Positions 16,479 through 20,430 of a DNA stretch of 64,000 nt are shown piece after piece (the first letter of the stretch is position 1; every line of letters starts with the position of its first letter). The stretch lies in assembly GCF_024521635.1 (NCBI RefSeq), contig NW_026250422.1, positions 248,001-312,000 of the forward strand. The letters run 5' to 3'. The position numbers and the translations under genes were made by a program. This stretch comes from Tricharina praecox. Lineage: Eukaryota. The notes beneath the pieces are model-generated. The model was not told where the DNA came from and did not search any database. It was given only the letters and a program-made list of their open reading frames with translations.

Positions 16479-18484
16479 TTTGTCGGGGTTGCGTCTGAAT
16501 AGTTGTAGGCAGTTGTAGTAGGAAGGATAGAAGAAATTCGAAAGATACCGACGAGTGCTATTAGGAACGTTGTTTGCTAGGTGAGTTTAAAGTTGTGTGT
16601 TGAAGGTAGAAGTTGGGGAAACGCGATGAGATGACTCGGGAACCCGCGTAAAGTTAGGGTAGCGTGCACTAGTCTAGGCTCCCTTTAGCTGTGTAACGTC
16701 ATAATTACACAAGGTCTCACTCGATTAGCGGAATTAACCAGCTTTCAAACGCTAGTGCACGTGCATAATACGGCGCAGAAACGAACAGGCGGTGACAGAG
16801 CTTCGTCTCTACTGCCGCGGGGCTAGCAGGAAAGGTCGGGAAGGCGGGTCGCCATAGTATAGAAAGGCCGTTTGCGGCAATAAATTGAAGGTCTCTCTCT
16901 CACGTACATGATAAGATTAAAACCACTTTGTCTCGGAGAGTGGAGTTATTCCATGCTAAGGCAAAAAGTACTACATGTGCTAAAGTAGAAATCCGAGTCG
17001 CATCATAGGTATGGCCTTACAGGTTGCTGCAGACTCACGATGGTGATCTCTGCGATCAAGCCCCTACCTACTTTACTCCGCCTGAGCGGCACATCCTCCG
17101 GCACGTGCTTCATAGACTAATGTTCCTATATGGTGCCCGTACGCTTTAAACCTAGGCTTCCGTGGAGAGGGTGTTACCGAATAAAATATGGGGGTCAACT
17201 ATTGTATCTCACAAGAGTGCGCGCGCTGTGAAGCTCCAATCGCTGGAGGATCATGGCTACTCACTCGCTTCTGTTCGAGTAACCGTCTAGGCTTAAAGCT
17301 GATTCACTCTAATGCTGGAGATGAGGGGGATGGAGGAGAGCGAGGCAGCGGACGCGAGAGTGGGGAATGGAAGGGATTAGGCCAATAGTTTAATTTCCTA
17401 ATCCTTGCGTCTGAATGTCCTTGGTGTGTTCAAGGGGGAGGCCGGGCGGAGAGCAGCAAGCAAACCCACATCGGCCGAAAGGCAGTGGGGAGGACACGGA
17501 TTTGTACACAGCCATGACCAACCAAGGTCGAATGCAATGACGATTAAACAAGATCCAGGCTTAGAGCGCACGGCAGCATACATAGTGTGAATGCTCATAT
17601 CATACATAATTTTGAGCCATATCGTCTCAGCAGAGAAGCATTGCGTTAACTCCTAGGTATCCGCCGCCCCAAGACCACGTGATACATCCACTGACATCAC
17701 CAATGGCTCGAATCTTCTCATCCTGCTTCGAGATACGACCCTTGGCCTTGACCACCAAGTCGCCATTCTCATTCCTAGTATGCTGGCACACTTCAAAGAC
17801 CCCATATAAAAGTCAGCTCCAAGTAAAAGTAGTTCACACTGGCCCCAAGCATTTCTGCCCAGAACGAGTCCTTCTTGCAACTCGAGCTTGGGGAAGGGTT
17901 CACGCCGATCGCCAAACATCCGAGCAAACTCCGCGCGGAAGGCGGGATTGGATCAATTTCATTTGAATGTGTGAGAACTCGGCGAGCGCCGCCTGGAAAA
18001 CTTCGAGCTGTGTGTTAAGCTTATCGACGTATGAGCGTTGCAGTCACTCGCCATGGGAGGCATACTAGAACTGTGCGTGTTTGGAATCGCGGCTCAACGT
18101 GCGGAGACCACCGCAGTGGTAGTTACATACGATGAGCCATGTGGAAAGTTGCATGTGGGGAAGTTGTAGGTTGCTCTAACCTTTGAGATGCCGCTCTGAA
18201 GTAAAGCTCATAGAATGTGAGTAGTGTGTGCGCTAAATGAGGCTCCGCTTACTTCACTGATCCTGTGCACTTATAGTTTAGCGCAGCTCCCAGCGGCTAA
18301 TCCATCCACAGACTCACATTTTGTGTGTGTGTGTGCCCTAAAAAACAGTCCCCAGTGGAAAAAACCCCCCACAACAGCCTGCCTTAGAGTTCGCCAAAAG
18401 TTCTGCGTAGGATTTCTGCAACCGACTTTCGCCAACAACACCAATCGCCCAGCAATACCCGGTCGCCTATCGCCCATCAGCAAA

Positions 18485-19987
18485 ATGTCTTCGTATGTAT
18501 CCTCGCTACAATCCTCGGATTCTCCTCGGCGTCAATGAACGAGGTCACTCCCGCTCAGCTGCGCTCGCGAGCCAGCTCGATCAATTATTCTTGGACTTCT
18601 TCCGATGAAGAGTCTGGGGTTTTGAGAATGGAATCGCTCGTTTCGCGTTTCCTTCTTTAAATACAAACTGCCGCGCGTATCCACTCCGTGCCTTCGGGCA
18701 TAGGATGTGGATTGCATGTGCAAGTCTCTCTTGAAGTTGTCTTCGAGGTCTTGTCGGATGAATCTGCCGTTGCTCGAACAGTTTGATCCGACTTCGGTCG
18801 TGACCTGCCTAGTAGAACACAGCCAGTTACACCGATTAAATCCATTCGTCGAGTGGTTTTAGCTACAGAGCAGAAGAGGCTTCCTCTTCATACTCGACGC
18901 TATCACTTTACTTAACTGCGGGACTGACAAGTGACACAGCACCACCCCCACCACTGAGCAGGTCTTGGTCCCCGAGACCCTCCTCAAGAAGCGCAAGACT
19001 TCCGAGAAGACCATTGAGGAGCGCAAGGCTGCCGCTGTTGAGCGCAAGAAGGTTAGCATCCACCAATCTCTCCCCATATTGCAATTGCAAGCACGTCGAA
19101 TCTACATGATGCATAACAACCCAACGCGACTAGCCCTACAAGGCGATGCTGTCGTAGTTAACCATCTTTCGGGTCTGACAAAATTCGACGTGCTTCTTTT
19201 GCAATCGAACTGTTACTATAGTGAGCAGAAATACTGACTTTGATAAACAGGTCAACAAGGAGAAGCGTCAGACTATCTTCAAGCGTGCCGAGAAGTACGT
19301 CAAGGAGTACCGCGATGCCGAGCGTGAGCAGATCCGTCTGTCCCGCGACGCCAAGAAGGAGGGCTCCTACTACGTTCCTGCTGAGGCCAAGGTTGTCTTT
19401 GTTGTCCGTATCAAGGGGTATGTTGTTTTGTGCAAATGACCAGTGATTCATGTACTAACAACGCGCAATAGTATCAACAAGATCGCTCCCAAGCCCCGCA
19501 AGATCCTCCAGTTGCTCCGTCTCCTCCAGATCAACAACGGTGTCTTCGTCAAGCTCTCCAAGGCCACCACTGAGATGCTCCGCATTGTCGAGCCCTGGGT
19601 CGCCTACGGAGAGCCCAACCTCAAGTCCGTCCGCGAGCTGATCTACAAGCGTGGTTACGGAAAGATCGAGCGTCAGCGCATCCCCCTGGTATGTTTCCAT
19701 ATTATTACACTTTCTGCTTGCGCCCAATCTAATAATTTCTTCAGACCGACAACTCCCTCATTGAGGCCAACCTTGGACAGTACGGTATCATCTCCATTGA
19801 GGATTTGATCCACGAGATCTTCACCGTCGGCCCCAACTTCAAGCAGGCCGCCAACTTCCTGTGGCCGTTCAAGCTGTCCTCCCCTACCGGAGGTTTCCGC
19901 ACCCGCAAGTTCAAGCACTTCATCGAGGGTGGTGACCTTGGTGACCGTGAGCAGTTTATCAACAACCTCATCCGCAAGATGAACTAA
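18485..19987 (+). CDS. RPL7: 60S ribosomal protein L7 (uL30); exons 18485-18492, 18940-19051, 19251-19417, 19472-19688, 19745-19987
   Basis: [76 protein letters not shown]. Strong ribosomal-protein codon bias. Confidence 0.97.
19102..19182 (+). ncRNA. Intronic box C/D snoRNA (snR39B/snR39-like guide for 25S rRNA) in RPL7 intron 2
   Basis: Box C ATGATGC at 19106-19112 and box D CTGA at 19175-19178. Guide ACCATCTTTCGGGT (19161-19174) is complementary to the conserved 25S ACCCGAAAGAUGGU (rRNA sequence recalled, not in window). Flanked by a perfect 13-bp inverted repeat at 19089-19101 / 19183-19195. Confidence 0.88.
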
Positions 19988-20430
19988 GTTGGTAATTTGG
20001 GATTGTAATTGGTGTTAGGTAGCCGAAGAAAATTTCTGATGGGCATTTTCTGGGAACAATAAAAGTTCGGCTTGGCGTTATCCGGAGTTGGTAGCGATTG
20101 TTTTTTACCATTCAAACTGTGTTGCCATCGTGATTCATGAAGTGACTGCCTTGCATTCCTGTTGGAAGAGCGTACCGTAAATATGAGAAGTAGTAAGAAA
20201 CGGCACTCCTACGCGGCTTCAACTGTCAAATTGTCGCGCCCGTTAGGATTCTACGTAGATTTACCATTACATACGGCCAACGGCAATCATGTGCTCTGAG
20301 AATTTCCCGAACCGTCCCTAGCGGCCCAAGACGTGTGATTTCAGTCCGTGCTCGAGTGGGGCGTAGCGCTGAATTTAGTGGAACTGTGGATTGGAGCCAA
20401 AACGCGGGCTTGATTGGTTAGGTGACCGAC

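Follow-up and report, generated by a model that had tools for sequence, protein, structure and literature searches.

A conserved RNA structure in the first intron of the fungal RPL7 (uL30) gene, a candidate element of splicing control

In Saccharomyces cerevisiae, Rpl7 represses splicing of the 409-nt first intron of RPL7B (Granas et al. 2025, PMC12311795). As set out in the sections of that paper used here, a conserved 'Hooks structure' of three stems (nt 200-355) is required and is bound by Rpl7, and its third stem excludes a zipper (nt 49-76 with 331-356) that makes up for the weakness of the branch point. Extracts of two other papers give the range of the Hooks structure as Saccharomycetaceae and Candida (PMC4937481) and as 'most of Saccharomycetaceae' (PMC8216456). 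The 'rpl7 motif' (Li & Breaker 2017, extract of PMC5640933) is a hairpin some 30 nt long whose central loop is surrounded by conserved nucleotides; its 22 examples in 17 species always lie in fungal L7 introns, among others in Aspergillus nidulans, where it was studied by reverse transcription polymerase chain reaction (RT-PCR), and L7 binding and regulation of splicing were proposed for it. Here we analyze the first intron of the uL30/RPL7 gene of Tricharina praecox (18493-18939 on the + strand, 447 nt, GT..AG) in a window of 64,000 nt (contig NW_026250422.1, positions 248,001 to 312,000), to which all coordinates refer. An initial annotation made from the letters alone had pointed to the autoregulation of yeast RPL7B through its first intron, correctly according to the sections of PMC12311795 cited above, and had proposed that intron 1 is a uL30-responsive splicing element or hosts a non-coding RNA (ncRNA).

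Comparison with related loci predicts that intron 1 contains a multi-part RNA structure conserved among numerous filamentous fungi. Relatives were collected by scanning metagenome contigs with exon 4, which gave 424 confirmed loci, and the best 80 of the 424, all at least 72% identical to the query exon, were used. The three closest loci (L001-L003) are alignable across the full intron 1, and L004 and L005, in which the intron measures 290 nt, share the 3' 200 nt only. An nhmmer profile of this 3' module matched 17 loci, in every case upstream of exon 2 and on the + strand. From alignments and single-sequence folds of 13 orthologues we then built a covariance model (30 base pairs) of a layout of three helices, P1-P2-P3. 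The model matched 19 of 81 sources, each time in RPL7 intron 1 and on the + strand, and had no match elsewhere in the 403,007 bases searched. A broad P3 core was found in 22 loci, and the full element or the P3 core is present in 34 of the 80 related loci. Among the other 46, nine contigs lack exon 2 (L011, L014, L042, L043, L045, L060, L064, L071 and L078) and four have less than 100 nt upstream of it (L032, L037, L058 and L073). Element-free loci with an intron 1 of 43-63 nt are L008, L009, L017, L019, L020, L022, L024, L026-L028, L034, L041, L044, L046, L047, L050-L052 and L055; L010 and L021 have neither intron 1 nor the element.

The pairing itself is maintained by compensatory changes. 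In the alignment fitted to the model (15 distinct rows) 95.3% of the cells are paired, compared with 86.7% after shuffling (none of 500 shuffles as high) and 38-49% when the pairing was slid along the alignment. Changes on both sides of a pair occur in 14 of the 30 pairs, against 4.8 in shuffled alignments (0 of 500 as many), and are found in six of the eight pairs of P1, three of the seven of the P2 base and four of the eight of the P3 lower stem. Because fitted alignments lean towards the model, the count was repeated on a plain MAFFT alignment of 13 sequences. The P2 base had 98.9% of its cells paired with compensatory changes in three of seven pairs, and P2 and the P3 lower stem jointly had 90.6% paired cells versus 21-44% in slid controls. 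For a further hairpin upstream, unit 1, six of nine RNAalifold pairs showed compensatory changes in an unfitted alignment of 9 sequences, so that four helices (P1, the P2 base, the P3 lower stem and unit 1) carry them. Covariation among relatives, which the initial annotation had put forward as a check, is thus present. Distant lineages vary least in a hairpin of P3, GAGAAUGC...GCA(G)UUCUC, which lies 55-110 nt before the 3' splice site and is invariant in 18 of 18 distant relatives.

From 5' to 3' the predicted layout comprises a 5' arm, the P0 hairpin, hairpin unit 1 and then P1-P2-P3 (18729-18899), which stops some 20 nt short of the branch point, whose box begins at 18922. All 16 checked strings of the initial annotation lie at the coordinates it had given. 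The 5' arm (18528-18554, intron nt 36-62) is complementary to the 3' strand of P3 and to the branch-point region. P0 (18556-18581), which belongs to the minimum free energy (MFE) fold, ends in the conserved CCAGCUCGAU (18572-18581), found with at most two mismatches at about intron nt 79-120 in 16 of 20 introns; CUCGCUGGAG often stands 5' of it and the two strands pair as P0. The following hairpin, GACUUCUUC-CGAU-GAAGAGUC (18594-18614), is also part of the MFE fold and is alignable in L001-L003 only. Unit 1 (18616-18667) is composed of GGGGUUUUG, a purine/pyrimidine hairpin and a closing UUUAAAUACA. Its consensus reads GGGGUYUUG, purine strand, pyrimidine strand, YUUAAAU, and it folds alike in all ten lineages where it was located. 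The segments 18616-18667 and 18744-18846 are two similar hairpin units, each with GG(G/U)YUUG, a stem and (Y)UUAAAUNCA. To judge by these sequences, unit 1 seems to be a second copy of the unit formed downstream by motif A, P2 and motif B, and the pair of units suggests an internal duplication or two sites for one factor.

Downstream of unit 1 lies a cUUCGg hairpin (18679-18712) of which L001-L003 keep the stem and not the loop, nothing being alignable beyond these loci. The initial annotation had counted two cUUCGg hairpins as part of the structure. Both are present in the window, but their loops change even in the closest relatives: the first reads UUUG in L001 and CCCA in L002 and L003, and the second reads UUCA in L001, with its stem broken in L002 and L003. 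P1 (UCUUGAAG-UUGU-CUUCGAGG, 18729-18748) stands directly 5' of motif A, is predicted in the single-sequence folds of 10 of 13 orthologues and has pair probabilities of 0.56-1.0 in the window. It includes the UUGAAG/CUUCGA stem noted before, which is present and conserved; CTTCGA, however, starts at 18741, and the position 18746 given for it is the end of the stem.

Motif A (GGUCUUGUCGGAUGA, 18747-18761) covers the P1/P2 joint together with the 5' strand of the P2 base. P2 (18753-18836) is closed by GUCGG (18753-57) with CCGAU (18832-36) plus 18759-60 with 18830-31, and its apical part varies freely in length and sequence among relatives. The P2 base has a competitor in the window lineage, the local stem GUCGGAU/AUCCGAC (18753-59 with 18786-92); this stem was found in the closest relatives only, and the family-wide partner of GUCGG is CCGAU at 18832-36. 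The competition proposed initially, between GTCGGAT/ATCCGAC and CGAC-TTCG-GTCG, rests on strings that do exist, but it is lineage-specific and falls outside the conserved core. Motif B (CACCGAUUAAAUCCAUUCGUCGAGUG, 18830-18856) was the most conserved block in the nhmmer and regex scans and contains the 3' strand of P2, the single-stranded UUAAAUCCAU and the 5' strand of P3; in the layout of the orthologues a single strand, UUAAAUNCAU, is conserved between P2 and P3. P3 (18847-18899) consists of a lower stem, CGUCGAGU/ACUCGACG, and an inner hairpin, GAAGAGG-CUU-CCUCUUC, with probabilities of about 0.5 and about 1, respectively, in the window ensemble. The stem CGTCGAGT/ACTCGACG that the initial annotation had drawn around GAAGAGG-CTT-CCTCTTC is this P3 and is real and conserved. 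The inner hairpin of the window (AGAAGAGG-CUU-CCUCUUC) is the diverged counterpart of the GAGAAUGC...GCAGUUCUC hairpin found elsewhere.

The branch-point box GACUGAC (18922-18928) is placed 11 nt before the AG of the 3' splice site (18938-18939) and fits CURAY, the usual form of a branch point. An equivalent box is present in each of the 20 introns examined, as CUGAC in 14 and otherwise as CUGAU, CUAAC or CUAAU. In L012, L013, L018, L025, L033 and L039, GACC(A)UUCUGAC is conserved just 5' of the branch point, and the GACC in it is the complement of the GGUC in motif A.

The complementarity of the 5' arm was assessed with RNAduplex by comparing the 5' arm region with the last 100 nt in 20 complete introns, each with 200 dinucleotide shuffles. 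In 16 of 20 introns no more than 3% of the shuffles paired as strongly as the native sequence; the mean z was -2.89 (window z -2.78, 1 of 200 shuffles as good). The sequences of this zipper vary among lineages, and the 3' partner from the same lineage usually beats foreign ones, since no more than three foreign 3' regions were as good in 14 of the 20 introns. In some lineages, for example L049, L056 and L063, the zipper is a duplex of 17-25 bp that uses up both strands of the P3 hairpin. In the window, stem Z joins 18528-18543 to the 3' strand of P3 (18884-18901) and ends 21 nt before the branch point; a fuller duplex, in which P0 also pairs with the 5' side of P3, has an energy of -44.3 kcal/mol. 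A second stem, Z2, joins 18544-18554 to 18918-18928, thus spanning the branch-point box, with pair probabilities of 0.8-1.0. Z and Z2 cross and would form a pseudoknot.

Intron 1 alone is retained in transcripts, in this species and in at least two others. The transcript evidence consists of RNA contigs of four public runs (X1-X4), one of which, X3, is a soil metatranscriptome; runs X5-X7 had small shares or none and were left aside. Unspliced contigs cross both intron-1 junctions in X1 (18466-18956) and X2 (18486-18968). The unspliced form had a depth of 985 in X1 and 852 in X2, the spliced form one of 5897 and 4034, respectively, although contig depth is a poor measure of abundance. In X3, two contigs without junctions fall within intron 1 (18513-18678 and 18709-18922) at a depth of 3.5-3.8, against 3.1-4.7 for the mRNA. 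No contig covers introns 2-4 in any of the four runs. Among 17 cDNA-like relatives that lack introns 2-4, inspection by eye found that 11 keep intron-1-like sequence, 4 are spliced and 2 are unclear. For two of the 17 a genomic counterpart from the same species is available: compared with the genomic L033 (99.6% identity), L039 has three downstream introns removed and intron 1 kept, and compared with L049 (99.4-99.9% identity), L040 has intron 2 removed and the whole of intron 1 kept. In the unspliced reading frame a TGA stop lies within intron 1 (18536-18538), after 17 codons.

The locus resembles yeast RPL7B in several respects, the likeness being one of layout. In the same gene, the first intron follows directly after the start codon (here 8 nt after the start of the ATG) and has a similar length (409 nt in yeast, 447 nt here). 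Both introns contain three conserved stem-loops, which form a module of about 155-170 nt that ends shortly before the branch point. Each has a 5' arm (nt 49-76 in yeast, nt 36-62 here) complementary to the last stem; zipper and hairpin exclude each other in yeast and may do so here, and the 3' arm of the zipper ends about 21-26 nt before the branch point. In both genes the second intron hosts snR39/snR59, and unspliced RNA accumulates. By contrast, unit 1, the repeated hairpin, and P0 are extra here, and protein binding and repression, shown in yeast, are inferred at this locus.

The GAGAAUGC...GCAGUUCUC hairpin of P3 fits the verbal description of the rpl7 motif in the extract of PMC5640933, the comparison being with that description only, and the element probably overlaps this candidate. 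The window lineage differs in having the diverged form (AGAAGAGG-CUU-CCUCUUC). P0, unit 1, P1, P2, the zipper and selective retention are absent from the account of the motif in that extract, and Rfam 15 does not include the motif. The extracts of PMC12311795 and PMC13232506 also list RPL30, RPS14B, RPL22B, RPS9A/B, RPL18B and RPS22B as autoregulated by inhibition of splicing. These genes are alike in that a ribosomal protein present in excess attaches to a structure of its own pre-mRNA, and splicing is thereby blocked; they differ in that the proteins are others, the structures are unrelated and most act near the 5' splice site, with no zipper competition. Our literature search found no work that links the rpl7 motif with the yeast RPL7B mechanism, nor any on autoregulation through RPL7 introns in Pezizomycotina, and PMC12311795, in the sections used, cites neither the rpl7 motif nor filamentous fungi. 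The term 'rpl7 motif' turned up in two papers of the library searched.

Folding energy was evaluated against dinucleotide shuffles (100 for the whole of intron 1, 200 for its parts). The + strand of intron 1 has an MFE of -153.8 kcal/mol whereas the shuffles reach -129.7 +/- 6.2 (z -3.91, none of 100 as good), so the shuffled-control fold check suggested by the initial annotation comes out in favour of structure. Taken separately, the 5' half had z -2.47 (2 of 200 shuffles as good) and the 3' module z -2.86 (1 of 200). On the minus strand, z was -5.70 over all of intron 1 and -2.14 in the 3' module; because this strand folds as well or better, the strand is not assignable from energy. The alignment of the covariance model, however, holds invariant G-U and U-G pairs, which would be mismatches on the opposite strand; these fit the + strand only, and the structured RNA is therefore the sense strand.

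We conclude that the feature in intron 1 is real and functional at the RNA level. On balance, our analysis suggests that intron 1 is probably a cis-acting RNA that controls splicing, most likely as a feedback sensor of free uL30. Excess uL30 would bind the hairpin state, that is P3 and perhaps also the two GGUCUUG...UUAAAU units. The bound hairpin state would disfavour the zipper and slow splicing, and the unspliced RNA, ending at the early stop, would be unproductive. The released segment of the arm (18544-54) might then pair across the branch-point box, which, speculatively, would be a second lock in this lineage. The uL30-responsive splicing element of the initial annotation thus agrees with the covarying helices, with the complementarity of the 5' arm and P3 and with selective retention, and is unproven.

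A number of observations weigh against intron 1 being such a sensor. The ligand, uL30, and the direction of the switch are what we infer from yeast RPL7B. The yeast mechanism depends on a weak branch point, UGCUAAC, whereas the one here, ACUGAC, looks canonical. In the window ensemble the P2 base has a probability of about 0 and the local stem of about 1, and P2 can be imposed only at a cost of 11.6 kcal/mol; either the energy model errs at this site or a partner, for instance a protein, is required for P2 to form. In the window model Z comes at a price of 8.7 kcal/mol over the MFE, and Z2, the best-predicted long-range stem, coexists with P3 rather than competing with it. The zipper is not significant in 4 of the 20 introns (L002, L074, L079 and L018), and several of the 20 are close relatives and thus not independent. 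An earlier, wider zipper test gave only z -1.07 for the window, with 14.5% of the shuffles as good; it used the whole upstream part and resulted in very long interrupted duplexes, and the narrower test replaced it. The upper hairpin of P3 gives no covariation (1 of 10 pairs) because its sequence is invariant. Retention would equally be expected if a long structured intron were simply spliced slowly. Finally, most of the remaining loci without the element have an intron 1 of 43-63 nt or none, and since this applies to whole clades the element was lost or never gained there; with so many lineages lacking it, the feedback, if real, is dispensable.

Three other explanations were weighed. The helices and the zipper could serve constitutively to bring the 5' splice site together with the branch point, with neither sensor nor feedback. 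The zipper signal in 16 of 20 introns and the high probability of Z2 in the window agree with this, as does the frequency of zipper stems in introns of yeast ribosomal-protein genes (extracts of PMC12350175 and PMC12311795). We nevertheless consider it unlikely that such an aid to splicing is all there is: it leaves unexplained the conserved single strands (UCUUG and UUAAAUNCAU) and the invariant GAGAAUGC/GCAGUUCUC hairpin amid freely varying stems, introns of 43-63 nt need no such help, so that the long intron calls for another function, and selective retention suggests that splicing is held back rather than optimized. Still less probable, in our view, is the release of the module from the excised intron as a stable trans-acting ncRNA, similar to a small nucleolar RNA (snoRNA) or a stable intronic RNA. 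The X3 contigs, without junctions and at mRNA-like depth, would fit such a product, the neighbouring intron 2 hosts a snoRNA, and the structured part of yeast RPL7B intron 1 was detected by RT-PCR without the full intron and called an ncRNA (Hooks et al. 2016, extract of PMC4937481). Yet the intron contigs of X1 and X2 cross both exon junctions and therefore represent pre-mRNA, L039, L040 and similar contigs are intron-retaining mRNAs, and the ends of an RNA are not visible in the contigs; moreover, there is no Rfam match in the window or in 13 relatives and no conserved C/D or H/ACA boxes.

An element acting at the DNA level, either an intronic transcriptional enhancer or the inverted-repeat remnant of a mobile element, would account for the folding of both strands beyond shuffles, the minus strand more so, and would suit a first intron near the promoter. 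It is very improbable, because compensatory changes keep the pairing, because the invariant G-U and U-G pairs would turn into A-C mismatches if read on the opposite strand or in cruciform DNA, and because every occurrence of the element in the 403 kb searched has the sense orientation and a constant position within RPL7 intron 1. The reading of intron 1 as a uL30 feedback sensor also has a more far-reaching form, which we regard as possible though doubtful. The element would be the Pezizomycotina form of an ancient uL30 riboregulator common to the Ascomycota and homologous to the Hooks structure of yeast RPL7A/B. Two GGUCUUG-stem-UUAAAU units that bind protein, together with the rpl7-motif hairpin, would form a three-state switch in which uL30 dissolves the zipper and frees the arm that masks the branch point.

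The possibility of a known RNA family in intron 1 was examined with Rfam 15. At gathering thresholds there was no match anywhere in the window. At E<=10, the region 18300-19300 gave two matches only, a weak one to snR39 in intron 2 and one to a long non-coding RNA (MESTIT1_3, 18601-18721, 16.4 bits, E 0.97) that was dismissed as chance, and no rRNA-like match fell in intron 1. Across 13 related loci (18,883 bases) intron 1 had no match, and a mir-208 match in L035 was likewise dismissed as chance. The H/ACA or hosted RNA proposed by the initial annotation was abandoned, given the negative Rfam searches here and in the 13 relatives and the fact that its ATACAA box (18661) belongs to the conserved UUUAAAUACA that closes unit 1; alignments of relatives showed neither a conserved hairpin-H-hairpin-ACA layout nor a conserved ACA after P3. 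A C/D snoRNA was rejected too: the GGAUGA of motif A varies between lineages (GAUUGA, GUUUGA, GGAUAC), the sole nearby CUGA is the branch point and the candidate terminal stems do not covary. A K-turn at the base of P2 was also discarded, as inspection by eye found no GA beside the C-stem on the non-bulged strand.

Intron 2, in contrast to intron 1, contains a C/D-box snoRNA of the snR39/snR59 type (19089-19195). It has a perfect terminal stem of 13 nt (19089-19101/19183-19195), a C-like box AUGAUGC, a D box CUGA and a guide, ACCAUCUUUCGGG, in agreement with the snR39 consensus of Rfam. The score is 20.1 bits, under the gathering threshold, and that of the L035 orthologue is 34.5 bits. A snoRNA in RPL7 intron 2 (snR39/snR59) is known across fungi according to the extract of Lim et al. 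2021 (PMC8476143). Intron 1 is like the hosts described there in carrying a conserved structured RNA in an intron of the same gene, and unlike them in having no snoRNA boxes or Rfam match and in being retained in the mRNA rather than processed. In several lineages with a short intron 1, intron 2 is also short (68-73 nt) and leaves no space for a snoRNA. L033, compared with L039, has no intron at the snoRNA position; the downstream introns that it does have number three and measure about 50, 114 and 54 nt. This shows that the intron positions of RPL7 vary while intron 1 and its element persist.

The uL30/RPL7 gene, on the + strand of the window, has five exons and four introns. Exon 1 (18485-18492) is limited to 8 nt, the ATG at 18485 and 5 nt more, and spliced contigs link 18492 to 18940. 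It is followed, after intron 1, by exon 2 (18940-19051, 112 nt), intron 2 (19052-19250, 199 nt), exon 3 (19251-19417, 167 nt), intron 3 (19418-19471, 54 nt), exon 4 (19472-19688, 217 nt), intron 4 (19689-19744, 56 nt) and exon 5 (19745-19988, 244 nt). The downstream exons match Pfam Ribosomal_L30_N and Ribosomal_L30. All four GT..AG joints are present in the RNA contigs: the intron-1 joint (18492/18940) in all four runs, from three studies, that of intron 2 in four runs and those of introns 3-4 in three. The spliced contigs agree with the limits that the initial annotation had set for intron 1, whereas its statement that introns elsewhere measure 50-120 nt, considered within this gene only, suits introns 3 and 4 and not intron 2. 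Contigs of X1, X2 and X4 start at 18431-18436, with an adapter-like loose end at 18433 in X2, which suggests that transcription starts near 18431-18436. The RPL7 contigs stop at 20026-20072, just past an AATAAA at about 20050, and this suggests a poly(A) region near 20026-20072. A (TG)7 microsatellite (18322-18335) lies about 100 nt 5' of the apparent transcription start.

To our knowledge, there is ample documentation in budding yeast, and hardly any in filamentous fungi, of ribosomal proteins that regulate themselves by way of their pre-mRNA. The present locus and the related ones link the rpl7 motif candidate of 2017 with the yeast RPL7B mechanism of 2025, and the comparative data provide a testable architecture, with compensatory helices, single-stranded motifs that may be contacted by protein, and a zipper as competitor. 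Intron 1 is retained selectively both in cultures and in soil. For annotation, the element would explain the long first intron and the abundant 'retained-intron' isoform as regulatory rather than as an error. Should the ancient riboregulator prove true, it would be among the oldest known feedback RNAs of eukaryotic ribosomal proteins, and possibly a mimic of the uL30 site on rRNA.

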